A stretch of 32,000 nucleotides of DNA. Source: Vulcanisaeta distributa DSM 14429 (GTDB lineage Archaea; Thermoproteota; Thermoprotei; Thermoproteales; Thermocladiaceae). How positions within the stretch are numbered: position 1 is the first letter of the stretch; each line of letters begins with the position of its first letter. A program made the translations under genes and the position numbers. Shown here in pieces: positions 16,436 to 28,771 of this stretch. The DNA lies in NCBI RefSeq assembly GCF_000148385.1, contig NC_014537.1:90001-122000 (forward strand), in the 5' to 3' direction. A model generated the notes under the pieces. It was not told the DNA's origin and ran no database searches. It saw only the letters and a program-made list of their open reading frames with translations.

Positions 16436-17146
16436 TTGGTTATGTTTCGGGGTTTTGGCAGGGCTGTTTTAATTATCTCGTTATTCCTAATTGTTTATTA
16501 CCTCATTTATTCCCTGTCGCTTATTTACCTCAAACCCTACATCCATTACTACCTCTCGGTAGCGAGCACCCACACCAGGGTGTTTAATTTCGCAGTCCTC
16601 ATAATATTCCTAACATCACCATTCAACGCCTACGAAGCCGTAATAATTCACGTAGACCCAACGACCTACTTCCTAATGAGCGTTCTCCTACCAACAACAT
16701 TAATGCTCGTATTCCTAACCCTCTACAACCATGTTGTGAATAGGCTTGGTGTAAGGCCCGTGATCCCAATCACGGGCTTTACAGTATTCACTATTGCTGC
16801 ATCACTCACCGACTCCTGGGTAGTGTCACTGGGTAGGTGGTTGGTTCTTGGGGCGCCGAGTATAGGAACCTCCGTGTACTCCATATTCCAACTAACCGCC
16901 ACAATGTACATAGTGGTTACCCTAATAATCCAGGTAATTAAGATCACACGCTCAGTGGGGTTTAGGCATGAAATTAAGTCACGACTCATCACGATATACG
17001 CACTAATCACGATCATAATAATACTCGTAATAACCGCAGTATACTACGTACTCATGAAATACGCACCAATAGCGAACACAAACCACGCAGTGGGACTAAT
17101 CATAGCCACACTACTCATTTACGCGTATCACAAATTTCATCACTAA
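16436..17146 (+). CDS. Polytopic membrane protein (about 7 hydrophobic segments), function unknown
   Basis: The 236-aa ORF is almost entirely hydrophobic helices. I recognise no motif. It has a TTG start with an ATG two codons later. Confidence 0.55.
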   Translation: MVMFRGFGRAVLIISLFLIVYYLIYSLSLIYLKPYIHYYLSVASTHTRVFNFAVLIIFLTSPFNAYEAVIIHVDPTTYFLMSVLLPTTLMLVFLTLYNHVVNRLGVRPVIPITGFTVFTIAASLTDSWVVSLGRWLVLGAPSIGTSVYSIFQLTATMYIVVTLIIQVIKITRSVGFRHEIKSRLITIYALITIIIILVITAVYYVLMKYAPIANTNHAVGLIIATLLIYAYHKFHH

Positions 17147-17274
17147 TTAATACGATGCTAATACCCGAAATAGATTGATGGAGCTAACAGTGAAGGATTA
17201 AGGAGGGATTTAGGCAGTCTCATAAGGTTGTCATGATGATGGATTATGTAGAACTGGCTTTGTTAAATTGTGCC

Positions 17275-18261
17275 TTATTTAACCTCCTGGATGCTTGTGC
17301 TTTTCCAGTCATCGCCTATCGTTAGCCTCAGCCTAACCGGCTCGGCCCTAGCATTCTCACAAGTCACCTGGACCTCAACCTCGTAAGTACACTTGGTCAG
17401 GCAGTCCTGAACCCTATTGAGACAGCCAAGCAGGAACACGTCCGGCCTCGCAAACCACGCATATGGTGGTGAACCACCGCATACGGTTGCCATATTTAGG
17501 TTATTGGCGTAAAATGGCTTACTACCATTGTCGAGGGGCATTACGATTAGGTTGAATATCCTAACATCATTGGGATTAATATCAACCCTATCCCTATTGC
17601 CCGCCCAAACCAGGTCAACCCAGTCATTGTAATCAGGACTTAAGCTACACCCAGCGGAACCACTTAATGAAGCCCTAACCTGCGCCACGCAATTCTTAGC
17701 AGCGCCACGGCCAATATTCCTAACACGAAGCCTAAGGTAACCGACAGCATTCTGTTGGGCAGGACGATTGGTGCCGCAGAGATCTGGGAACGTGTTAAGG
17801 ATGGGCTTGTCCTGCACGATCTCAATACGCAGATCAGGCGATGTTGAGACTGCTCTGAAGTACTCCTGAAGACCAATAGCCATTAAAGTACCACCACTAC
17901 CAACAATGGGACCCGCAGGGGTGACGTAGGAACTACCTGGAGTAAACAGCATCACGAAGCCCATGATCAGCAGAAACACGCCAAAGTCGGAAATAATAGC
18001 ATGCCAAACATTGCCATCATAAGATAACCACATGGCAAGAATTAATATAACTATGCCCACTATAATGAATGCAGCCTTCACTAATGAGATCATTACTAAG
18101 TCTATCAAACTCATATGAGATCCATTACCGTAAACCGTAACGAAACTCGAAATGAGTCCAAAACCCATAAAAATACCGCTAATTGCAGAATAAAATATTG
18201 TTAAAAAGGAATAATTTATTACCACGTGGTGAAATAAGTTTATGAGCACTCCAATACACAC
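17275..18261 (-). CDS. Membrane-anchored protein with a C-terminal beta-rich (CARDB-like?) domain, function unknown
   Basis: The N-terminal 130 aa or so are hydrophobic helices. The C-terminal soluble domain has the beta-sandwich-like pattern YLRLRVRNIGRGAAKNCVAQV ... VRIFNLIVMP ... YEVEVQVTCENARAEPVRLRLTI. The ORF has a GTG start and may continue the 18179-18475 ORF through a frameshift. Confidence 0.6.
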   Translation of the reverse strand: MCIGVLINLFHHVVINYSFLTIFYSAISGIFMGFGLISSFVTVYGNGSHMSLIDLVMISLVKAAFIIVGIVILILAMWLSYDGNVWHAIISDFGVFLLIMGFVMLFTPGSSYVTPAGPIVGSGGTLMAIGLQEYFRAVSTSPDLRIEIVQDKPILNTFPDLCGTNRPAQQNAVGYLRLRVRNIGRGAAKNCVAQVRASLSGSAGCSLSPDYNDWVDLVWAGNRDRVDINPNDVRIFNLIVMPLDNGSKPFYANNLNMATVCGGSPPYAWFARPDVFLLGCLNRVQDCLTKCTYEVEVQVTCENARAEPVRLRLTIGDDWKSTSIQEVK

Positions 18262-18475
18262 TTATAAGATATATATTGATGAAAATAATTAAAACAATAA
18301 TAGCTGCGAAAACGGACCTGAATGAGGATGGAAGAGGTAATTGTACTATCGTAATACTTATACCTATACTTATAACCGATAAAAGCAATATGAATGCGAA
18401 TAATATTGTAAATACTAATAGTAATATTGTAAAAATCCAATCTGGTATTCTTAGGCGTCTTCTTAACTGCTGCAT
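18179..18475 (-). CDS. Small 2-3 TM membrane ORF; possibly the displaced N-terminus of the 17275-18261 gene
   Basis: This ATG-initiated 98-aa hydrophobic ORF overlaps the next ORF by 83 nt in a different frame. The DNA here is very AT-rich. Confidence 0.4.
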   Translation of the reverse strand: MQQLRRRLRIPDWIFTILLLVFTILFAFILLLSVISIGISITIVQLPLPSSFRSVFAAIIVLIIFINIYLISVYWSAHKLISPRGNKLFLFNNILFCN

Positions 18476-18665
18476 TTTGTAGGAGCGCAGTCTCCTCTTT
18501 TTAAGGATTTTAAACGCCCTATTTAGTGCTTATGTAACGCTTCAAAAGGAGCACGAGGTTGAGGTTGTTAGGCACTGTAATGCTTCGTTTCCATGCCTCG
18601 AACTTGAGGTTAGGGTTTCATGGCCTTACGTTGACGCTCAGCTGCAGGTACCGATTGGTGGCGTT

Positions 18666-19241
18666 TTGATGTGGGATGATGAGATTCTTGGTCAAGTCGC
18701 TTTTAAAAGCATCACATATATGCCTGGTAATGCATTAATGATCAGCAATGTCCTCAAAAATGCCATGTCTAGCGCTCGAATTACTGGTTTCGTACAATTG
18801 AGCCAACAAGCCATTGATCGTATTGAGGAGCTAAGGATGAGGAGTAATGGCGACATTACCATGAAGTTAAGCCCAAGCTTTGTATCCTTCTTCACCGATT
18901 ATAATAGGGGCGATACCGTGAAGGTTGTGCATACTGAGGGAAGTCAGGACTCATTTGTGGCTTTAAAGATGGCGTCCTCATTACTTAGCGGATCTGTTAC
19001 AACCATTACGTGCAACGTGAATGTGAATGGTTACAAGTGGGTCAGTGAGTTTTTACCCAAGCTCATAGGCTCCGGCTACCTAGTTATTGAGTTGCCGTTA
19101 TTACCAATGCCCAGTGACCTTGGTAAGGAGTTTAATGAGCACGTAATTGCGGTTGTTGAATCATTGAGGATAGCTAGGGATGAGCTTCATAAAAACCTAG
19201 ATAAGGGCTCAGCACTAACATCGATTAAAACGCCTTACTAA
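18666..19241 (+). CDS. Hypothetical protein (191 aa from TTG/ATG; the frame is open from 18482)
   Basis: The ORF has coding-like composition. The in-frame upstream extension (..EHEVEVVRHCNASFPCLELEVRVSWPYVDAQLQVPIGGVL) also looks coding but has no ATG, GTG or TTG. I recognise no motif. Confidence 0.5.
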   Translation: MMWDDEILGQVAFKSITYMPGNALMISNVLKNAMSSARITGFVQLSQQAIDRIEELRMRSNGDITMKLSPSFVSFFTDYNRGDTVKVVHTEGSQDSFVALKMASSLLSGSVTTITCNVNVNGYKWVSEFLPKLIGSGYLVIELPLLPMPSDLGKEFNEHVIAVVESLRIARDELHKNLDKGSALTSIKTPY

Positions 19242-19255
19242 ACCCATGCAATGCG

Positions 19256-19549
19256 TTGGGGGTCATTGGCAAAAGGCTCGGCATAGACATGGGCAGTGGA
19301 GAGAGCAGTAAGGATAGGCTCAGAAAGTTAATACCGGGCATAGTCAGGAATGGGAAACTCGCAGAGTTAATAATCGAATCGATCACGAGGATTAAGAGTA
19401 TAGCCACTGTAGGTCCGGAACCAACACAACCGCACTACAGGCCAGGCTCCGAACCACTAACGCCAATCGAGGTCAATGACATAATAGGAATAACAACGTA
19501 CATAACCAATATATTATTAACGGAAATAAAGAACCTAGGACGGATTTAA
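19256..19549 (+). CDS. Hypothetical protein (97 aa, TTG start); may be the continuation of the 18666-19241 ORF
   Basis: It starts 14 nt after the previous stop in another frame, and its frame is already open from about 19226. Confidence 0.4.
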   Translation: MGVIGKRLGIDMGSGESSKDRLRKLIPGIVRNGKLAELIIESITRIKSIATVGPEPTQPHYRPGSEPLTPIEVNDIIGITTYITNILLTEIKNLGRI

Positions 19550-19782
19550 CAAAATCCGTAAATGAATGTACACAGCATGAGCATTATCATATTTAAAACA
19601 ATGCCTACGTATGTACCTAAACCTATATCAGTCAGCATGGTAATTCCACTTATAAAATAGGTCATGCTGTTAATTCTGGCGATTGCTATTTCGTTCAGCT
19701 TCGTATTCCCTTACCCTAATAAGCATGAGGTAGCACTCGTTCCAAGCGGTAGTCTCTAGTTGTATTACGTAGTTTAACCACT

Positions 19783-20514
19783 TCATAGTTCGAGACATTC
19801 AATACCGTACTTCCTACGCAGTACCTCCCTTATACCCCTCACATGATCCTTACCAAAGACTATGAGGACCCTCGCCCCAGACTTAATGAGCTCAGCAGCA
19901 ACTTCAGCAGCCCTCTCATTCCTTAGCATGAGCGTTTTATCGGCTAAAAATCTTATTGGCATAGCCATAAGCAGAATTGAGAGTAGAACTAGAAGTGATA
20001 ATGCTAGATAGATTATTCTTATTAAGTTTCCATGAGGTGTGATCATTAATAAGGCAATCAATACAAGGGGTAGGAGAATGGATACTCCTAGAATGATCCA
20101 GCTGGGCTTGACGTAATCATCAAGCCTTATTAACAATCGTGTTAATGCGTAGTCTCCCCACACGTATTTTACATGCTTCCCAAAGGTAGCTTCAACACTC
20201 TCGACATCACTTCCAACACTGAATTTGCCCCTCCTTATTAATTGATAGAACCCATAGAGTAACGCAAGGAGCTTATTCGTGAATCTGAAGTGCAGCTTGA
20301 AGGCGATTACTAATGGTAGGTATCTCATGTTCCTTAATAGCCAGCCTAGGGTTATGTCATCCCTAACACCCTCGTACACAACATGCGTTATGCATGGCAT
20401 AATCCTCAACAGGCTCTCCCCATTAACCGGCATCACATGTACAGTACCAACTATGTAGCAATCACCACACCCACTCATCGATCTATTGGACGTATACTGC
20501 GGTATAAAAATCAA
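19783..20514 (-). CDS. TraB/Tiki-superfamily protein (putative metalloprotease-like) with two internal TM helices
   Basis: The N-terminal CYIVGTVHVMP is a GTxH motif. The C-terminal RNERAAEVAAELIKSGARVLIVFGKDHVRGI matches the ER...G-x-x-H-x-x-G pattern recalled for the TraB/PrgY/Tiki family. The hydrophobic stretch is SWIILGVSILLPLVLIALLM..IIYLALSLLVLLSILLMAM. Confidence 0.5.
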   Translation of the reverse strand: MIFIPQYTSNRSMSGCGDCYIVGTVHVMPVNGESLLRIMPCITHVVYEGVRDDITLGWLLRNMRYLPLVIAFKLHFRFTNKLLALLYGFYQLIRRGKFSVGSDVESVEATFGKHVKYVWGDYALTRLLIRLDDYVKPSWIILGVSILLPLVLIALLMITPHGNLIRIIYLALSLLVLLSILLMAMPIRFLADKTLMLRNERAAEVAAELIKSGARVLIVFGKDHVRGIREVLRRKYGIECLEL

Positions 20515-20558
20515 GCCAGCAAGAAAAACAATATTATTTTAGTTGGTTTATGCCAGGA

Positions 20559-20939
20559 CTACGTCATGCCTAGGTAATTCCTTAGGTGTTCCTTGACTAG
20601 TTCACACATTACCAATGCAACCCTGTATGGCAGTCCATTAATGTCCTTGGGGTCGCACCTTAATGGTCCCTCATATGCTAATTCCTCAATTGATGCCAAA
20701 TCCACGAACACCCTAACGTACCTGCCCAAGTCCTCGAATCTAACGTTGATGAATGGTACTCCATACCTCCTCAATTCATTATTAACCCAGTCATCAACGC
20801 GCGTCTTACCATCCCTGATTAATTGACACACCCTGGAGAGTACGTAATCCCTAACACTAATTGTTAACCTACCCGCGTCAAAGCCCATGGACCTAAGCTC
20901 ATCGGCGCACAAGGCCAGGTCACCCTTACTAATCGCCAT
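20559..20939 (-). CDS. Hypothetical protein (126 aa), upstream of and co-oriented with the TraB-like gene
   Basis: The ORF has an ATG start, coding-like composition and no recognisable motif. Confidence 0.5.
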   Translation of the reverse strand: MAISKGDLALCADELRSMGFDAGRLTISVRDYVLSRVCQLIRDGKTRVDDWVNNELRRYGVPFINVRFEDLGRYVRVFVDLASIEELAYEGPLRCDPKDINGLPYRVALVMCELVKEHLRNYLGMT

Positions 20940-21308
20940 ACTGCAAATTCAATTCCACAAGAAATTTAACCCTTTCTATTGCATTAAGGCATCATCGGCA
21001 ATATAGGAACAAAAACTCTGGGGAAACCCCATGCAATGCATCCTGCCGTTAATGAGAATGCTGGGTTGATACTGATCTTAATTACAGTACTATGCACATG
21101 AAACGCCAGCAGTAAGGGCTTTAACCAAGGAATCAGTGAAAGTGACAACGGCCATCCAGCTTCACCACTTAGGTGTGTTTAGGTTAATTATTATGGGCGT
21201 TTATGAACCTTTTACAGTCATTCTCATTACGTATTAGGTATACGAGGAATAATACAGGCTTACCCTCTTTATCCCTCAATTCCTTACCCTCTAACTTCTC
21301 GATATCCT

Positions 21309-21655
21309 TTACATTCCATTAACCCTTTTAGTAATACCCCTGCTACCCTCAAAGTCGTAGTTTGTGGGTATTGCCTTCAACTCGCAGTGGTATTCTTTAC
21401 CGCCTTGCACCTTGAACCATGGTCACGCCTCCCTCCTTTATTGCCGTACTGCCTCTCGACCTCGTACTCCCCAACACCCATTGACGTCAGTGCATCAATA
21501 ATCGCGTACCTAAGGAAGCCCTCATCACTATGCCTGGCATGAATTAGGCGAGTTAAGTAACCAGTCCTACTCTCAAACCCCACAAGCCTACCAATAACAT
21601 CAAGCAACCCATCAAGAAACGACCCCTCACTAAATGAAGAGCTAAACCCAACCAT
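21309..21655 (-). pseudogene. Frameshifted PD-(D/E)XK (restriction-endonuclease-fold) protein
   Basis: The track ORF (21377-21655) ends ..GEYEVERQYGNKGGRRDHGSRCKAV.. The -1 frame continues from about 21420 as PWFKVQGGKEYHCELKAIPTNYDFEGSRGITKRVNGM*, with its stop at 21309-21311. Joining the two frames gives GRRD-x15-ELK, a canonical D...(D/E)xK arrangement. Confidence 0.5.
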
Positions 21656-21739
21656 TAACTAGTCATTGGTGAGGCAGTAATTACGCATTACCCATCAATG
21701 AGTGATGAAGTTATAAACAGACTTTCTACGAATTAAGTA

Positions 21740-21928
21740 ATGCCCACCTGGCTTTACCACCTCGATGAGTTTAGGCTGGTCAGTGATTACGACTTCAATT
21801 ACACGATTAATGAACTAATAGGTATTGCCCTGAGTAAGGCCGAGGAGCTGAGCATCAAGCCAACCACAGTATGCCACCTAGAACTTAACAACCTTTCAGT
21901 GTGCAGGGCTTTAAGATTTACTGGTTGA
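21740..21928 (+). CDS. Hypothetical small protein (62 aa)
   Basis: The only evidence is the ORF itself. A 43-aa hydrophobic ORF follows it, starting with the ATG at 21937. Confidence 0.25.
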   Translation: MPTWLYHLDEFRLVSDYDFNYTINELIGIALSKAEELSIKPTTVCHLELNNLSVCRALRFTG

Positions 21929-22279
21929 TATCTGGCATGTTCGTGAATCACGCATTTGTGATAATCGATAATCACTTGTTGAGCGTGCTATGTACATTGT
22001 TAGGGTTATTCATCAGCACAATATTGGGCGGGGTTGCAAAGTCCAGGGATTACCTAAACATCCCTTAATGATTAATTGCAATAGTATTTTGCCAACGAAT
22101 CAACAAAGGAGTGCTGTGCATCGCCTTAGATACTAAAACTAGACTTTTCACACCTAGCTTAGTATTGGTCATTTAATAGTGAATCATTTAAGCTGTGACT
22201 CGCAATATATACATTAACGTTGTTGATTATATTGGATTAATTTGTTTACCGTAATCTGCATCCGTTTCGTGACTTATTC

Positions 22280-23389
22280 CTAGCTCTGGCACTTGAGGTT
22301 GTTTAGTGTCTTGAGTAGTTGGTTATAGTCTCCACCTTTTATTATACATTGTACCGTGCTTTCTAGTTGGTTCAATTTATTAACCGTTATGCATAGATTG
22401 AACCTTAATGGCCTTCTAGACCCCTCACCATGCACCGTAATCTCAAACACAAATTCAATATCCTTAGTGAGTATAAGGCATGCCCTGTATGGTCTTACTG
22501 ATGGATCGCTTGGTCCTCCACCGCCATACTCACTGTAGGGCATTATCAAGTACTTGTCATCACTCAGTTTCACGTAGTCAAATATTAACAGCCTATTCCT
22601 CTGCCCAGGGGAGATCGACGTTATGTGTTGATAATCAGTAAAGAACCAGGGTAATGGTAAGTCCTTTAAGATATCAAGAAACTCTTTAACAATATTGGTC
22701 AGGAAACTATTAGATTTCTTATTAGATTTCTCATTAGATTTCTCGATCTTCTCGGCATCAAGTAGTTTCTCGGTGAGTTTCTTCTTACTTATGACCTTAC
22801 TACGTAACCTGATACTAGGCCTTACCACGATCCTCTCGGGCAATGCCCAGGGAAGTGATTCACCAACTACATGGGGGTTAACCCTATTGGCGAGGTAATT
22901 TTGGCAATTAGGTGATTCAAGTATTTCCTTAATATGATTATACTTTTTTATATATTCATCAAATTTATTTCTGTGTAATAGGACGTCGCCGAGGTGGTAT
23001 TTTTCTTCGTTTCCTTTCTTAACCTTAATCGTCAATGATGCCTTAGCGTCTCTAATTATTGCATTGCCATCATTTATTATCATTGCTGAGATTCTACGCG
23101 TCGGATCAAAAACCTCAACATCAAGCCCAGGATCAACCTCACCGCCAATACCTAGGGACAACCTTAAGGTGCTCGTTGACGCATAGTATTTAACCAGGTC
23201 ATTACTTAGCACCGCAATTACCGAGATTAAGGCACCAATTATTGGGCCTGACACCTGTAGTATGTATTGGTGGTACTTCAATACGGGTTTATAAAGCGGC
23301 CCTAAAACAATTTGCGCAGGCACTATGAGAAGTAGGACTATGGCAAGCGATACAATGGCAATCACCAACAAAACAACACTACCCCTCAA
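22280..23389 (-). CDS. Membrane-anchored protein (2 N-terminal TM helices) with a beta-rich ectodomain and a Lys/Ser/Asn/Glu repeat linker; distant structural paralog of 17275-18261
   Basis: The TTG-started 369-aa ORF has the N-terminus VVLLVIAIVSLAIVLLLIV and the strands ISAMIINDGNAIIRDAKASLTI ... RNRLLIFDYVKL ... FVFEITVHGEGSRRPLRFNLCITV. It also has the repeat linker EKSNEKSNKKSN. Confidence 0.6.
   Translation of the reverse strand: MRGSVVLLVIAIVSLAIVLLLIVPAQIVLGPLYKPVLKYHQYILQVSGPIIGALISVIAVLSNDLVKYYASTSTLRLSLGIGGEVDPGLDVEVFDPTRRISAMIINDGNAIIRDAKASLTIKVKKGNEEKYHLGDVLLHRNKFDEYIKKYNHIKEILESPNCQNYLANRVNPHVVGESLPWALPERIVVRPSIRLRSKVISKKKLTEKLLDAEKIEKSNEKSNKKSNSFLTNIVKEFLDILKDLPLPWFFTDYQHITSISPGQRNRLLIFDYVKLSDDKYLIMPYSEYGGGGPSDPSVRPYRACLILTKDIEFVFEITVHGEGSRRPLRFNLCITVNKLNQLESTVQCIIKGGDYNQLLKTLNNLKCQS
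22709..22744. repeat. Three tandem 12-nt repeats (attagatttctY), coding for KSNE/KSNK repeats on the minus strand
   Basis: The sequence reads attagatttctt attagatttctc attagatttctc. Confidence 0.9.
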
Positions 23390-23499
23390 ACATGCCCACC
23401 CGAGAAGAAAATCTTACGCCATGACTTAATAAACCCATTTTTCAAAAGTAAAGGCAATACAAGGTTCACTAGGTATTAATATCCACTGCCTTATTCATT

Positions 23500-24225
23500 T
23501 TACTTTTCCTTCAATTTTGAAAAATACTCTTTACATACTTTTACTGGAATGGCAGTACATAAGGTTGTCAGTATGAATATTACTAGGATCATTATTAAGG
23601 TTATGAATAATAGGATCATGAATATCGCAATGAAACTTAGTAGGGCTGTTTGGGCCCAGTATGGTAGTTGGGGCATGTTTGATGGTAGGCTTGTTATGTT
23701 TCCTAGTACTTGTTGCGTGCTTGATTGTTGGGCTGTTGCGGTCATTACTACTAATATTACTGCCATGATTGCGATGAATAGTATTACCTGGAGGTAATAA
23801 GCCCTAGTGCCCCTACCCACTAAGCTCTCAAAATGCGCTTCAGATTTGCTCACGATTTTGTGGGCTTCCTCAGTCTCGTATGGGACATTTACATTGGCGC
23901 ACTTCTGTTCTATTTCCTCAATGCACTTAGCTCTCTCCACCTGGAAGTACCTAATCTTTATTGATAGTGCCATCATTGTAAGCACAAATATCAACAGAAT
24001 GAATAGTAACCCCAACTTCAGCATTATTGTTCCTGGACCTAGACCAGTTAGGTAGTGGTAAATCAGCGTTAGGACAACACCAACAACTGTCGCAGTGCCG
24101 AAGGGTATCTGCCAAAGCAAATTATCGTAATGCCTCCAATCCTCAACCAACCTCTCATAAACACGCATACCAAGCTCGTCGCATTTAAAGTGCTCGATAC
24201 GGCAATGTCTCAGCTCCTCACCCAC
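23500..24225 (-). CDS. Four-TM membrane protein with an N-terminal cytosolic helix and a central soluble loop, function unknown
   Basis: The 241-aa ORF starts at GTG, or at the ATG at residue 20. It has two TM pairs, GTATVVGVVLTLIY/LGLLFILLIFVLTMMAL and LQVILFIAIMAVILVVM/ALLSFIAIFMILLFITLIMILVIFIL. Confidence 0.55.
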   Translation of the reverse strand: MGEELRHCRIEHFKCDELGMRVYERLVEDWRHYDNLLWQIPFGTATVVGVVLTLIYHYLTGLGPGTIMLKLGLLFILLIFVLTMMALSIKIRYFQVERAKCIEEIEQKCANVNVPYETEEAHKIVSKSEAHFESLVGRGTRAYYLQVILFIAIMAVILVVMTATAQQSSTQQVLGNITSLPSNMPQLPYWAQTALLSFIAIFMILLFITLIMILVIFILTTLCTAIPVKVCKEYFSKLKEK

Positions 24226-24245
24226 AGGTTAAGGCTCTAAACTAA

Positions 24246-24611
24246 CTTTTTAAACATCAGTCAGACATAGAACTAATTCAGGATGCTTTAGACTTTGCCT
24301 GGCCTCCCATTAATTGTAGTCCTTGGATAGGTCAGATTTATTGGCTTTGTTTTCGTGGTTCCATTGTTGAGGTTAAGACTGGTATTGAGTCCTCGGAGAG
24401 GGGTAGGCCTGAGTACGTGGTTGAGCAGTTGAGACACTATAGGGAGTTCCTACAGCCGAGGCACATGGCCCTTGCAATACTGACGAGTCCAACCACGGCA
24501 ATACCAAAGACCGAGCTAAGGCAGTTGGGGGTTGAAGTATTCCAGGAAATCACAAACACAAAAATTCAAGATGAATTCAAAAATTACATAATAAGCGCAT
24601 TGAAAGAATGA
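24246..24611 (+). pseudogene. NucS/RecB-like nuclease-domain remnant (the E-x-K strand lies upstream of the only usable start codon)
   Basis: The frame is open from 24246: ..DALDFAWPPINCSPWIGQIYWLCFRGSIVEVKTGIESSERGRPEYVVEQLRHYREFLQPRHMALAILTSPTTAIPKTELRQLGVEVFQEI.. This resembles the NucS C-terminal pattern (hhhElK...QL..Y...L....hhhL.ap......L...Gle). The first ATG, GTG or TTG is the GTG at 24417, downstream of the EVK motif at 24369-24377. Confidence 0.4.
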
Positions 24612-24620
24612 GCAAGGTGA

Positions 24621-25370
24621 TTACTTTTTCATTATACTTATTAGTTCACTCATTAAGCATTTCTTAATGTTTATCTTCGAGACTAATACTTTATATAGTA
24701 TTGATAATTGGTTTAAGTCGTGGGTGAGTCTGTCCTTAATGTATTTACCCAGCTCATTCCTGTCATTATCGCTTAGCCTACCTCTAAACTCTCCCTTGAT
24801 CTTTCTGCACATCTTGAGCATCGACTTCTTACTTTCTTCTCCCTCATTATGGCTGGCTACTACGCCCTCCTTAAGGCACCTGCTCGCCGCATTTACGACT
24901 TCTTCTAGGTTGATTTTCGTCCTCGGGAATATTATCGATTTGATGAAGTCGTAAAGGTCTAAGTAAATTAGATGCGGTTTAATCCCGATTAGCTCGAGCG
25001 CTTCATCAATGTTTTTCATTAATCCTTGCCTATAAAGCCTATTGGCTAATACTGGCAAGTCGAAGGACCTAATGTTCCAACCAATAACGAGGACCGAATA
25101 CCCCGACCCACGAGCCTTCTCGTTAGTCTTTTCAACGTCCTCCTTAGCACGTCTTAAGTATTCATCGACCTTTCCAAGGAAGGTGTTGAGGATCTTCCCT
25201 TCACAATCACTAATGCTATTGCACTCATAATCCGATACCGTGACTATGTAATTATCATAGCATTTACCGTCTTTACCGCACTCCCTAAATCCAAATCCGA
25301 TAACTTCATCATTGATGGATGGAGTATCGCCGGCGGGGCAGGTCTCGATATCGAAGAGTAGGAATACCAT
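24621..25370 (-). CDS. DEDD-type 3'-5' exonuclease (RNase H-like fold, DnaQ/PolB-exo-like)
   Basis: The ORF has MVFLLFDIETC (ExoI DxE), VLVIGWNIRSFDLPVLANRL (ExoII) and DRLTHDLNQLSILY (ExoIII-like H/D). I prefer the ATG at 25370, 1 nt after the upstream stop, over the track's TTG at 25397. Confidence 0.7.
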   Translation of the reverse strand: MVFLLFDIETCPAGDTPSINDEVIGFGFRECGKDGKCYDNYIVTVSDYECNSISDCEGKILNTFLGKVDEYLRRAKEDVEKTNEKARGSGYSVLVIGWNIRSFDLPVLANRLYRQGLMKNIDEALELIGIKPHLIYLDLYDFIKSIIFPRTKINLEEVVNAASRCLKEGVVASHNEGEESKKSMLKMCRKIKGEFRGRLSDNDRNELGKYIKDRLTHDLNQLSILYKVLVSKINIKKCLMSELISIMKK

Positions 25371-25371
25371 A

Positions 25372-26586
25372 TTAATCACCCTTACCAACATTGGCAATGT
25401 ATATGTATGGCTTTAGCCCTGTCGTGCCTCGGTAAATACTCTTGTTCGTGAATAGTTCGGGTTTGAAGTATGCCTTTGTCCTTATGCCATACCTTATGAG
25501 TACCTCGTTAATTACGTTGGCGACATTAATCACGACGTTTAGCGCTAGGAATGATGGTACGTAGAATATCAGGGGTATTCCGCCCTCATTATCCCTAGGG
25601 TTAAATAACGTCTTTGATTCGTAGTGTAAGTCTCTCCTTATTAACTCATTGATTATTTCTATGAATACCTTGCCGTAAATGTCCCTCCTCCTTATAAACA
25701 CCATCCATTTACCACCAATCACGGGCACATACAGCATATCATCATCTAGACGACCCATAAGCAGCAATCGCCTAACCTCATTCTGGTTAATTAGGAAGAG
25801 GAGTTCGTCCTTCAACACCGTAATTCCCGCCTTTTCCAGTCTTTCCTCAACAGTACTTATTAATCGGTCGTAATCCTCAACATCCTTCAACAACTGCAGC
25901 GTTTCCTGCAACGCCTTTTCACAAACACCGCCAGTGTTTAGGCAGTGAAACCAGCCATCCCATCGGGAACAATGCATGCTTAACATGGTGTTCATTAACT
26001 CCTCAACCTTAACCCTCAAGTCACTTGGCAACCCAATATCATTATTAATCCTAACGACCCAATTAACCCCATTCAGGGTATGCCATACCCCGAAGACCTC
26101 CCTAACAATCCTCCTGGCAGTACTTACGTCAACACCATTAACACGGGCTAGGTGATTAATTGCCGCCTCACTTAACCCATGAACCTTCGCATAACCCTGA
26201 TGCTTAGCCAGGTGGCAGTTGCGGCATAACCTCCTTAGGTGGGTAATCACGGCAATACCCTCATTACCCTTAACCACGTAGTCCCACTCCTCATCAATCT
26301 CAGCGCCAGGCGCACCACAAACCTCACATGGGCCGTTCCTATTGAGTGAAAACCACCAATCCCTAACCCTCCTAACAGCATCACCACAGCCACTGCACAT
26401 CGCATCAGCAATGTATGGGCTCATATTCGCAATATTCGCCAAGCTAATACCCCATAGAGGGCTCGGCACAAGCCTAGGGCACAACCTAGTCAACTCACCG
26501 CAGGCACTAACGTACACATCACCCAAATCACTAGGCAACATTAAACCCACACAAGAATTCACGCAGAATTTAATAAGCCCTTCCAA
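25372..26586 (-). CDS. Fusion protein: N-terminal HNH-like (beta-beta-alpha-Me) zinc-finger domain, a central helical region and a C-terminal domain resembling DUF1917/Bles03-like
   Basis: The N-terminal part reads RLVPSPLWGISLANI..CSGCG..RDWWFSL..GPCEVCGAPGAEIDEEWDY-x17-LRRLCRNCHLAKHQGYAKVHG. The C-terminal part reads IGGKWMVFIRR...YESK...GIPLIFYVPSF...AYFKPELFTNKSIYRG. The start is TTG at 26586 or the ATG at codon 16. Confidence 0.6.
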   Translation of the reverse strand: MEGLIKFCVNSCVGLMLPSDLGDVYVSACGELTRLCPRLVPSPLWGISLANIANMSPYIADAMCSGCGDAVRRVRDWWFSLNRNGPCEVCGAPGAEIDEEWDYVVKGNEGIAVITHLRRLCRNCHLAKHQGYAKVHGLSEAAINHLARVNGVDVSTARRIVREVFGVWHTLNGVNWVVRINNDIGLPSDLRVKVEELMNTMLSMHCSRWDGWFHCLNTGGVCEKALQETLQLLKDVEDYDRLISTVEERLEKAGITVLKDELLFLINQNEVRRLLLMGRLDDDMLYVPVIGGKWMVFIRRRDIYGKVFIEIINELIRRDLHYESKTLFNPRDNEGGIPLIFYVPSFLALNVVINVANVINEVLIRYGIRTKAYFKPELFTNKSIYRGTTGLKPYIYIANVGKGD

Positions 26587-26629
26587 AATTAAGAAGCAGC
26601 GTGCTTACCTGTACAACATGGCACGTTTT

Positions 26630-26899
26630 CTAAGTAATCCTCAACCTTAGCCTCTCGGTGGGAATTAAATCAGCAATCCTCTTGTACCTGAAGTGGATGG
26701 TTATTGGTATGGGTTCCTCGGCATCAAACCTCCTCAAGTCGTTAATGGGTATCTGCGGGTTTGTGGGGGTAGCCGATGCGCTTATGTAACGTGTCGGTAC
26801 GAAGCCCTCGATTACGTAGACCCCACCAACCCACCTAATCACCAGGTATGCGCAATCCATCACGCAAACCACAACACCAGAACTAAAATACCCAACCAC
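26630..26899 (-). CDS. Hypothetical small beta-rich protein (89 aa from GTG; 76 aa from ATG), first gene of the putative operon
   Basis: It is co-oriented with the HNH-fusion gene and lies 43 nt upstream of it. The overlapping plus-strand ORF 26693-26980 looks less protein-like. Confidence 0.4.
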   Translation of the reverse strand: MVGYFSSGVVVCVMDCAYLVIRWVGGVYVIEGFVPTRYISASATPTNPQIPINDLRRFDAEEPIPITIHFRYKRIADLIPTERLRLRIT

Positions 26900-26966: not shown

Positions 26967-26998
26967 AACCCACTTATTAAATTATTAATAAGTGGGTT
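26967..26998. promoter_or_regulatory. Perfect 14-bp inverted repeat with a 4-nt spacer, overlapping the AT-rich TATA-like region of a divergent promoter
   Basis: The sequence is aacccacttattaa-atta-ttaataagtgggtt. It ends 3 nt before the GTG (27002) of the methyltransferase and lies 68 nt upstream of the minus-strand start at 26899. Confidence 0.6.
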
Positions 26999-27001
26999 AT
27001 T

Positions 27002-27697
27002 GTGTTTGAGGCTGGTAGGTATGATTCTTGGTTTCTTAGGAATAATTACGTGCTTGAGTCCGAGGTTTTGCTTCTGAAGTACATGCTTGAGCCTGGCCCG
27101 GGTAGGGCTTTGAGTGTTGGTTGTGGCTCTGGGCTTTTCGAGTTTATTCTCAGGACTAGGTATGGGATTGTTATTAGTGATTGTGTTGAGCCTAGCCCAG
27201 CAATGGCTGAGGTTGCCAGGGCTAGGGGGCTTAATGTTAGGATTGGTTATGCCGAGGAGCTACCCTTCGAGGACTCCACCTTCGACACAGTGATACTCAA
27301 TGGCGTGCTGGACTACGTTAAGGATGATGTTAAGGCAGTTAGGGAGGCCTACAGGGTGTTGAGGCCTGGTGGACACATTGTGGTTGCCGACGTGATTGCC
27401 GAGGGCTCCTACGGACTACTCTACAGGCTTGCCGAGCTCCTCGGCTCGTGGGATGACCCGTACATAGCCAGGGTTAGGCCTTTGAACCCATACCCAATTG
27501 AGTATGTTAGGCAGGCCAGGTGGCACACGGTTGATGAGATTAGGAGATTGCTCGAGGATGCTGGCTTCATAATTGTTAAGGTTGCGCAAACACTGACTAG
27601 GCACCCGAGGTACTCGAATGAGTCCGTTGAATACCCAATTGACGGCTATGATAGGGGTGATTACGTGGCATTCAAGGGCTGGAAGCCAGGCCCGTGA
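27002..27697 (+). CDS. Class I SAM-dependent methyltransferase (Methyltransf_11-like)
   Basis: The ORF has motif I ALSVGCGSGLF, post-I VEPSPAM, FDTVILNGVLDYV and LRPGGHIVVAD. It has a GTG start. Confidence 0.8.
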   Translation: MFEAGRYDSWFLRNNYVLESEVLLLKYMLEPGPGRALSVGCGSGLFEFILRTRYGIVISDCVEPSPAMAEVARARGLNVRIGYAEELPFEDSTFDTVILNGVLDYVKDDVKAVREAYRVLRPGGHIVVADVIAEGSYGLLYRLAELLGSWDDPYIARVRPLNPYPIEYVRQARWHTVDEIRRLLEDAGFIIVKVAQTLTRHPRYSNESVEYPIDGYDRGDYVAFKGWKPGP

Positions 27698-28516: not shown

Positions 28517-28614
28517 ATGGTGGGCCCGCCGGGATTCGAACCCGGGACCTCCCGGTTATGAGCCTTACGCGGGGCCTTCGCCCCAGGGCGCTCTACCTGG
28601 CTAAGCTACGGGCC
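28517..28614 (-). tRNA. tRNA-Met/Ile2(CAU): tRNA with anticodon CAU (elongator Met or Ile2) carrying a 21-nt non-canonical intron in the 5' side of the anticodon stem; CCA encoded
   Basis: The reverse complement is GGGCCCGTAGCTTAGCCAGGTAGAGCGCCC[TGGGGCGAAGGCCCCGCGTAA]GGCTCATAACCGGGAGGTCCCGGGTTCGAATCCCGGCGGGCCCACCA. Removing the bracketed 21 nt (about 28564-28584) restores a perfect anticodon stem CCCGG/CCGGG around loop CTCATAA. The intron itself forms a GGGGC-GAAG-GCCCC hairpin. Confidence 0.85.
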
Positions 28615-28771
28615 CTAATGAAAGTGGTTTTATGGCAAATTTAAGCTTTTCGTCTCGGGAATCATTATGGGGTATAGTAATGGAACTTATGACATCCTGT
28701 TCTTGGATCATTATGTGTATAGCCTTGATTTTCTCGTGATGAATCCTTACATGAAATACCTAATTAATTAA

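Follow-up and report, generated by a model that had tools for sequence, protein, structure and literature searches.

What might bring together, in a hyperthermophilic archaeon, a zinc module related to HNH endonucleases, a domain known from a human protein and an exonuclease of the polymerase proofreading type? The question is raised by two genes of Vulcanisaeta distributa DSM 14429, which lie on the minus strand of a 32,000-nucleotide window of contig NC_014537.1 (positions 90,001 to 122,000). All coordinates below are those of the window, that is, of the whole stretch of DNA analysed, and those of the features are collected in Table 1. The first gene encodes a fusion protein, numbered here from a 404-amino-acid open reading frame (ORF), and the second a 249-amino-acid exonuclease, a single base separating the two coding regions (TAA-T-ATG). 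An original prediction, made from the letters of the sequence, had described these genes and a preceding 89-amino-acid ORF as three co-oriented minus-strand frames, and both their positions and the one-nucleotide spacing of the first two are as it gave them; from context it suggested a conflict or mobile-element module outside any described system. The reading proposed here, to which we give a probability of about 0.42, is that the two genes form an accessory nucleic-acid-processing module of hyperthermophilic Thermoproteota, which binds or nicks DNA and then resects it, destroying foreign DNA in defence or conflict. The parts come from known superfamilies (HNH-like, BLES03 and DEDD exonuclease of the PolB type), and our literature searches found no description of the domain combination, of the glutamate-for-histidine signature or of the repeated coupling to exonucleases.

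Judged by its sequence relatives, the N-terminal domain of the fusion protein is a divergent zinc module of the HNH superfamily, joined to a helix-hairpin-helix (HhH) segment, in which a glutamate replaces the catalytic histidine. Decisive for the HNH-like assignment is the PHROGs family phrog_5200, 'HNH endonuclease', which matches residues 74-180 of the fusion at E 2.3e-14 and covers distant stand-alone relatives end to end (E 1e-25 to 1e-38); the Pfam HNH model falls just under its cut-off on the fusion itself (20.9 bits, cut-off 21.4), matches 9 of 29 family members at or near threshold (best 1.4e-5), and is passed by the distant relative P0111 at 22.9 bits. The original prediction had likened the CxxC...CxxCH pattern to that of short phage proteins annotated as HNH endonucleases, a likeness borne out by phrog_5200 and by homologues of the zinc module in 223-242 phage records (tblastn), mainly of rV5-like myoviruses. 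A profile of the N-terminal domain retrieves 1311 relatives at E<=1e-3 among 1.84 billion representative proteins, many of them stand-alone proteins of 140-200 amino acids, and the family is also present on 96 plasmids, with some members fused to DUF5710. Members of phrog_5200, among them gp121 of Salmonella phage PVP-SE1 and the homologue of Escherichia phage rV5, share with the archaeal proteins the LVPxPLWG motif, the W..IR helix, CxxCG, the [H/D]-E-x-W-x-Y hairpin, the CxxC(H)xxxHxG helix and a VN(G) HhH-like tail. Phage and plasmid members, however, are stand-alone proteins of ~145-180 amino acids or DUF5710 fusions and mostly possess His at position 98, whereas the archaeal family has Asp at this position and adds a linker and a BLES03-like domain; for phrog_5200, moreover, 'HNH endonuclease' is an annotation only. 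The plasmid hosts of the zinc module include large Pseudomonas, Xanthomonas, Streptomyces and Deinococcus plasmids (P0111, P0148, P0174 and P0190; loci L108-L110), on which the DUF5710 fusion recurs, once together with TPR/Sel1 repeats, and a Providencia plasmid carries its copy just upstream of parA/parB.

The arrangement of the domain was taken from AlphaFold2 (AF2) models, in which the whole fusion, modelled with 29 homologues, reaches a pLDDT of 90.5 and a pTM of 0.89, and residues 20-178 modelled alone a pLDDT of 95. In the predicted structure, short helices with the invariant LCPRLVPxPLWG motif lead to a helix bearing W78 and R83, followed by C87-x2-C90-G and a long beta-hairpin (strands 96-106 and 109-120) that opens with D98-E99-x-W101-x-Y103; a helix then runs from C121-x2-C124-H125-x3-H129-x-G131, and the domain ends with the HhH-like tail carrying N150. 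The beta-beta-alpha topology is present in this model, and the motifs quoted in the original prediction are all in place (CPRLVPSPLWG at 36-46, CEVCG at 87-91, IDEEWDY at 97-103 and CRNCHLAKHQG at 121-131). The four zinc cysteines are invariant in the family alignments, and distant fused relatives bear additional HhH domains (Cdd1/HHH_5). In common with canonical HNH domains (GVE2 HNHE 5h0m, McrA and colicin E9), the module has a beta-hairpin and a helix that are framed by a Cys4 zinc site, a W...R helix at its N-terminus and H125 in the position of H118, whereas its hairpin strands are unusually long (11-12 residues) and its catalytic positions differ, as described below. Similarity to solved HNH domains is weak: with the broad profile A4, GVE2 HNHE comes first at E 0.009, group II intron maturase, Cas5-HNH, IscB and McrA have E 0.16-1, and IcmJ/DotN, a zinc protein that is not a nuclease, scores comparably to the HNH enzymes (E ~0.02). 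Foldseek retrieved no HNH structure. A match of the close-relative profile to the zinc fingers of MCM among solved structures was rejected as a chance similarity.

In the weak alignment to GVE2 HNHE (E 0.009), the general base H93 is matched by E99, D92 by position 98 and H118 by H125. That an acidic residue takes the place of the first histidine of the phage pattern, as had been proposed, holds for position 98, which is Asp in 34 of 36 close relatives, with His the commonest residue among 94 distant ones (His 43, Asp 17, Asn 7); the counterpart of the catalytic histidine is E99, however, and not D98. Of the HNH catalytic residues, whose retention the prediction had marked for checking, the general-base His is replaced by an invariant Glu, and the Asn position (N109 of GVE2 HNHE) is variable and occupied by H116 in the window protein. 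Since the H93A substitution abolishes nicking by GVE2 HNHE (PMC5304195), nuclease activity of the module cannot be assumed, and its endonuclease activity is uncertain. Conservation of the site is nonetheless high: among 130 relatives examined, E99, W101, Y103, the four Cys, H129, G131 and N150 are near-universal, with N150 kept in 85 of 89 distant relatives and H125 in 31 of 35 close and 63 of 89 distant ones. An archaeal sister branch has the motif run LCPRPxP...C..CG...(E/Y)xW.(Y/F)...C..C without the HxxxH helix motif, and variants of the zinc module with even fewer nuclease-like residues therefore exist.

The C-terminal part of the fusion, on the evidence of its model, is a BLES03/eIF4E-fold domain with the K/K/Y/K residues of that family, in agreement with the DUF1917/Bles03-like resemblance noted at the outset and with its motifs (GGKWMVF at 291-297, YESK at 322-325, FYVPS at 341-345 and FKPELFT at 374-380). 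The top three Foldseek matches in the PDB are chains of human BLES03/C11orf68 (1ztp; E 4e-5 to 1e-4, probability 1.0), after which more than 40 eIF4E structures appear in the list from E ~1e-2. The Pfam family Bles03 (PF08939, formerly DUF1917) matches 12 of 29 family members (best 1e-7) and is precomputed on 10 fusion homologues, although the window fusion itself gives no match to it at E<=1; the family profile meets the 1ztp sequence at E 0.06, with GKW, (A/S)K, Y-x-P and KPD-x-FT-x-x-GIY lined up. In 24 full-length relatives, K293 and K325 are each conserved at 95%, Y342 at 91% and K375 at 100%, and these correspond to K128, K159, Y175 and K204 of BLES03, the residues singled out in a purely computational proposal that BLES03 is a phosphothreonine lyase (PMC4159009). 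Beyond that prediction, our literature searches found no experimental study of BLES03/C11orf68 function, and no paper for DUF1917. The human protein shares with the archaeal domain its fold, which is also that of eIF4E, and the same four motifs (the last in the form KPD-x-(F/Y)T-x-x-GIY), but is a stand-alone eukaryotic protein, whereas the archaeal domain shares a polypeptide with a nuclease-like DNA-binding module and has genetic linkage to an exonuclease. Since ~190 columns are spanned by the Foldseek alignment of the model to 1ztp, the region that joins the two domains may be the counterpart of BLES03's N-terminal half.

The second protein is a probable stand-alone 3'-5' exonuclease of the family-B-polymerase type. 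The window protein has one close homologue and by itself matches Pfam only below threshold (DNA_pol_B_exo1, E 1e-3, 18.7 bits, cut-off 23); against the sequences of solved structures it finds nothing, and a family profile was needed. The family was gathered with a hidden Markov model (HMM) seeded solely from the window exonuclease and iterated over 98 loci encoding fusion relatives, which yielded 47 ORFs. An alignment of 20 members shows D7, E9, E57, G97, D104 and L108 to be invariant, and 12, 11 and 7 of the 20 match DNA_pol_B_exo1, DNA_pol_B_exo2 and RNase_H_2, respectively; one relative of 187 amino acids (locus L004) passes both RNase_H_2 (33.1 vs 22) and DNA_pol_B_exo2 (26.6 vs 24). Against the PDB, the family profile (A3) aligns with archaeal family-B polymerases at E 1e-8 to 1e-5, with Deep Vent polymerase at 1e-8 and Pfu-type enzymes at ~5e-6. 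The DEDD label first attached to this protein is sound for motifs I and II (FDIET at 6-10 and GWNIRSFDLP at 97-106), which are of the PolB type, and less so for THDL at 216-219, an irregular Exo III. The family shares Exo I FDIET and Exo II NxxxFDxPxL with the exonuclease domain of archaeal PolB, with DNA_pol_B_exo2 (PF10108) and with RNase_H_2 (PF13482), but differs from the polymerase domain in being a stand-alone protein of ~190-250 amino acids, in having no polymerase or helicase partner, in its variable insertions between Exo I and Exo II, and in an Exo III of the form HxxxD.

The pairing of the two genes is real and their linkage non-random, the exonuclease being a frequent but facultative partner. 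Of the 45 exonuclease-family ORFs counted in the 98 related loci, 33 abut or overlap the fusion gene and the others are at most 1.3 kb from it; the 400 kb of locus sequence more than 2 kb away contain none, as against 294 kb of sequence within 2 kb. Conservation of the neighbourhood, which the prediction had proposed as a check, is found in 41 of 67 loci with adequate flanks, though not in the other 26, and in 8 of 22 sequence clades; the exonuclease is also the commonest neighbour family (37 loci vs 9 for the next genuine family). Three arrangements occur: the exonuclease gene may lie downstream of the fusion gene and on its strand, as in the window; it may lie upstream, again co-oriented and in some cases with two paralogues; or the two genes may converge, their 3' ends overlapping. 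More direct couplings exist as well: P0112, P0137 and P0117, the last from a Nitrososphaeria metagenome-assembled genome (MAG), combine the zinc module with an RNase_H_2 exonuclease in one polypeptide, and P0171 combines it with an exonuclease of the unrelated RNase_T/DEDDh kind. Short archaeal forms without the BLES03 part may still adjoin the exonuclease (L097), which suggests that its partner is the zinc module. Coupling between the zinc module and a 3'-5' exonuclease has come about on no fewer than three separate occasions, with partners of the PolB-exonuclease, RNase_H_2 and RNase_T types, and this repetition is a strong guilt-by-association signal for a shared activity.

Several side observations bear on these couplings. 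P0137 is a 713-amino-acid protein with a zinc module, HhH and RNase_H_2, of which residues ~110-235 hold a KYRYWKSDADTAAGRYS stretch reminiscent of the BLES03 motif KPDxFTxxGIY; a second BLES03-like domain in its N-terminal extension was considered and rejected, with an hhalign probability of 0.4% and nothing in Pfam. In rV5-like phages, the phrog_5200 homologue lies in a run of genes for a NADAR-domain protein, the HNH-like protein and, 3' of it, a 373-amino-acid protein annotated 'exonuclease' (L099, Salmonella phage PVP-SE1, 3483-5571), with Endonuclease VII and a polymerase exonuclease subunit encoded a few genes beyond. The adjacency in phages is only a loose parallel, because the PVP-SE1 'exonuclease' (gp122) has no match in Pfam or the PDB and none to the archaeal exonuclease HMM. 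Another recurrent neighbour of the archaeal fusion, of ~190 amino acids, is encoded 240-300 bp upstream of it in 9 loci (L002, L007, L009, L010, L016, L026, L028, L069 and L076), and a family of 193 amino acids lies between exonuclease paralogues and the fusion in 4 (L004, L005, L071 and L075); among the recurrent neighbours besides the exonuclease (c2, c23 and others), these two families included, none has a Pfam match.

The region that holds the module varies between strains. The fusion protein has 55 homologues, mostly of 370-455 amino acids. Its family occurs only in Thermoproteota MAGs and hot-spring-type metagenomes, apart from one match in Nitrososphaerota, and only two Vulcanisaeta proteins of the family were present in a 5.8-billion-cluster database. 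In a Vulcanisaeta MAG contig (L006), the exonuclease gene directly abuts a TraB-like gene (window 19783-20514), from which it is separated in the window by a ~4.1 kb AT-rich block (20470-24637, GC ~0.40) that is absent from L006 and whose ORFs of 241 (23500-24225) and 369 amino acids (22280-23389) have no family matches. A Logan contig from another Vulcanisaeta strain (L101) is 91% identical in DNA over 5.1 kb (window 16758-21882) and diverges fully at 21882, where a DEAD helicase and large unknown genes stand instead, and position 21882 is, on this sequence comparison, one edge of the strain-variable region holding the module. The original description of an AT-rich island applies to part of this DNA only: the fusion gene, at 46.2% GC, is close to the window mean of 45.4%, whereas the exonuclease gene has 41.5%, and the AT-rich DNA proper (~40% GC) lies downstream of the pair, at ~21.5-24 kb.

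How such a module might act can be sketched from its parts. The zinc/HhH module would bind DNA, and either nick it or merely hold it; the BLES03-like domain would target or license the protein by recognising something that bears a phosphate (for instance a nucleotide, a modified base or the end of a DNA strand); and the partner exonuclease, perhaps in contact with the fusion protein, would enter at a 3'-OH and degrade the strand, with destruction of foreign DNA as the net outcome. The contexts of relatives, although anecdotal, fit an accessory gene of variable, defence-rich regions. They include a PARIS-like AAA_15/AAA_21 and DUF4276 pair with PIN genes and HerA/NurA, a type I restriction-modification (R-M) system, PIN/RHH genes, and Mrr with a HerA-like ATPase gene. 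In an Infirmifilum MAG (L105, 1-8311), the fusion gene comes directly after a type III-B locus (RAMP, Cmr2/Cas10, Cmr3) and a Csx1 CARF protein; by analogy with this Cmr/Csx1 context, the BLES03-like domain could be a binder of a cyclic-oligoadenylate-type signal.

A number of observations weigh against the reading proposed here. The association with defence genes is itself anecdotal (5 of 9 annotated contexts, without a background control), and one relative lies among housekeeping genes (TopoVI, eIF-1A, an eIF-5/eIF-2B domain and RIO1). PADLOC-DB v2 gave no match at E<=1, and NCBIfam none, for the fusion, the exonuclease, the 89-amino-acid ORF and the two downstream ORFs; the genes are not part of a described system, and the original prediction had likewise been unable to place them in one; among distant relatives the only meaningful PADLOC match (DEDDh/PDC-S48) is to the RNase_T part of P0171. 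The exonuclease is absent from 26 of the 67 informative loci (~40%), the invariant E99 lies opposite the general-base His of HNH enzymes with the Asn position variable, and, to our knowledge, the ligand is known for no BLES03 protein.

A comparable described architecture is that of modification-dependent (type IV) restriction enzymes, in which a reader domain is joined to HNH (McrA, and SRA-HNH enzymes such as HHPV4I, PMC10101028); the archaeal protein likewise combines an HNH-type module with a domain that may bind a ligand or a base. Two relatives of the fusion bear the label 'McrA' at JGI, and some relatives lie in defence-gene neighbourhoods. Here, however, the candidate reader has a BLES03/eIF4E fold rather than SRA, YTH or PUA, the catalytic histidine is missing, an exonuclease partner is present, and PADLOC finds no match. 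A more specific and, in our estimation, unlikely version of the scheme is that the BLES03/eIF4E-fold domain reads some nucleic-acid feature (for example an end that is capped or bears a 5'-phosphate, a signalling nucleotide or a modified base that is flipped out) and licenses a nickase of a Glu-variant HNH type, which hands the 3' end to the exonuclease, in an archaeal immune or repair system.

DNA repair or end-processing is the best placed of the alternatives, though unlikely. By analogy with MrfB, a lesion or blocked end would be recognised by the BLES03-like domain together with the zinc/HhH module, and the exonuclease would remove the damaged strand. Members of the exonuclease family match RNase_H_2 (PF13482), which we take to be the Pfam family of YprB/MrfB. 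MrfB is a 3'-5' DNA repair exonuclease (PMC11194089; bioRxiv 10.1101/2025.09.15.676423), which acts in mitomycin C repair in Bacillus. The housekeeping context of one relative, HerA/NurA-type genes near three loci and the lack of a match to any known defence system in PADLOC would all suit such a role. The distribution of the module is patchy and strain-variable, however, unlike that of core repair genes, phages and plasmids are the typical carriers of the zinc module family, and several contexts contain CRISPR, R-M or toxin-antitoxin genes. Furthermore, the MrfAB repair pair is defined by its helicase (bioRxiv 10.1101/2025.09.15.676423), and no YprA/MrfA-type DEXH helicase adjoins the pair in the window or in related loci.

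Next, and also improbable, is a non-catalytic adaptor, whereby the fusion would do no more than target or regulate the exonuclease, or would work by itself, maybe on RNA 5' ends or nucleotides through its eIF4E-like domain. This would account for the family-wide Glu in place of the catalytic His and the unconserved Asn position, for a similarity to IcmJ/DotN comparable to that to HNH (E ~0.02 vs 0.009), and for the many loci that have the fusion and no exonuclease, and the eIF4E fold is that of an RNA cap binder. Yet E99, H129 and W101/Y103 are near-universal, and H125 usual, across more than 100 divergent relatives, which argues for a functional site over a mere scaffold, and the H125-x3-H129 spacing is presumably the metal-ligand spacing of colicin-type HNH enzymes. 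The partner, moreover, is of a DNA-polymerase proofreading type, and HhH motifs typically bind DNA.

A selfish cassette resembling a homing endonuclease, in which the HNH-like protein would cut an empty allele and the exonuclease resect it for gene conversion, could explain the diversity of contexts but is a decidedly poor bet. Phage homologues are labelled homing endonucleases, flanking genes differ in nearly every clade, and indels surround the pair between Vulcanisaeta genomes. Against this, the homing annotations are unverified labels, and a search of 2.9 million viral contigs found no member of the archaeal fusion family. Flanking repeats, target duplications and att-like boundaries, sought over ~16-30 kb, yielded only short matches at chance level, and the flanking TraB-like gene, used to look for an empty site, proved almost as narrow in distribution as the pair (3 homologues only) and revealed a synteny break but no clean empty site. 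Homing endonucleases normally retain the catalytic histidine, and the 230-amino-acid BLES03-like, putatively ligand-binding part would be left unexplained. Finally, that the BLES03-like domain is a phosphothreonine lyase acting on phosphoproteins is very hard to credit in spite of its retention of all four proposed residues, given that the proposal is computational and its authors themselves place BLES03 structurally nearer eIF4E (PMC4159009), that the domain occurs here in one protein with a DNA-binding HNH/HhH module and has an exonuclease linked to it, and that no kinase or lanthipeptide-type genes are among its recurrent neighbours.

What the locus offers is a conserved, uncharacterised gene pair of hyperthermophilic archaea, built on a large unstudied HNH branch in which the catalytic histidine has been lost while a Glu/His/Trp/Tyr site is strictly kept. 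It also sets the BLES03 domain in a nucleic-acid-processing context, which argues against phosphothreonine lyase activity, the sole published functional proposal for it. Should the defence reading be true, the pair would be a candidate addition to the few immune systems known from Thermoproteota, a group whose virus-host biology is unusual. Were the reader and nickase version correct, it would give a first functional clue for human BLES03/C11orf68, namely binding of nucleic-acid ends or nucleotides instead of lyase activity, and the 'HE-W-Y' zinc proteins, of which phages, plasmids and cells together have more than 1000, would form a distinct nuclease class working with DEDD exonucleases.

Table 1. 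Coordinates in the window of the two genes, their domains and motifs, and adjoining features.
Feature	Coordinates	Strand	Remarks
Fusion gene	25372..26586	(-)	404-aa ORF from TTG 26586, stop TAA 25372-25374; probable true start ATG 26541 = 389 aa
N-terminal domain, aa 20-178	26053..26529	(-)	LCPRLVPxPLWG helix region, Cys4 zinc beta-beta-alpha core, helix-hairpin-helix-like tail
Zinc/beta-beta-alpha core	26194..26328	(-)	C87-x2-C90-G, D98-E99-x-W101-x-Y103, C121-x2-C124-H125-x3-H129-x-G131
Helix-hairpin-helix-like segment, aa 135-171	26074..26184	(-)	N150 of 'VNG' turn; Pfam HHH_5 E 0.0025 over aa 127-163
Middle alpha/beta linker, aa 176-285	25732..26061	(-)	Confidently modelled; conservation limited to archaeal family
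BLES03/DUF1917 (eIF4E-fold) domain, as modelled, aa 286-404	25375..25731	(-)	Conserved K293, W294, K325, Y342, K375-P-D/E-x-F
Exonuclease gene	24621..25370	(-)	249 aa, ATG 25368-25370, one base downstream of fusion gene
Exo I motif FDIET (D7, E9)	25341..25355	(-)	D7 and E9 invariant in 20/20 members; aligned to archaeal PolB FDIET
Exo II motif GWNIRSFDLP (N99, D104)	25053..25082	(-)	G97, D104 invariant, N99 87%; aligned to PolB YNGDSFDLPYL
Probable Exo III THDL (H217, D218)	24714..24725	(-)	Family consensus EHLEGDL (HxxxD); here Asp aligns, His shifted to adjacent position (RLTHDL)
TATA-like box TTATTAAA	26569..26576	(-)	35 nt upstream of ATG 26541, read from sequence
89-aa ORF, probably outside module	26630..26899	(-)	GTG start

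The window is chromosomal DNA of V. distributa, and the fusion ORF is 100% identical to the NCBI protein P0001 of that species, of 389 amino acids. Because of that length, because residues 1-19 are unaligned across the family and have a pLDDT below 50 in the AF2 model, and because the TATA-like box lies 35 nt upstream, ATG 26541 is probably the real start; the box itself may be the archaeal promoter of a near-leaderless transcript. A scan of the region for bacterial promoters and terminators was uninformative, the host being an archaeon. The 89-amino-acid ORF, called as a 76-amino-acid version by a gene caller in Logan assemblies, had been named by the original prediction as preceding the operon. 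It is not counted in the unit here, because library scans found no family match for it and tblastn no relative in ~100 related loci.

At 1.6 kb from the module lies a 98-nt tRNA gene (28518-28615, minus strand; Rfam tRNA, 50.6 bits), which presumably contains an intron and whose anticodon could not be named by ARAGORN; no repeat of its 3' end was found nearby. Closer to the module, where the module side and a SAM-methyltransferase gene (27002-27697) diverge, the intergenic DNA contains a perfect palindrome with 14-bp arms, AACCCACTTATTAA-ATTA-TTAATAAGTGGGTT (26967-26998), which could serve as a regulator-binding site or a bidirectional terminator.

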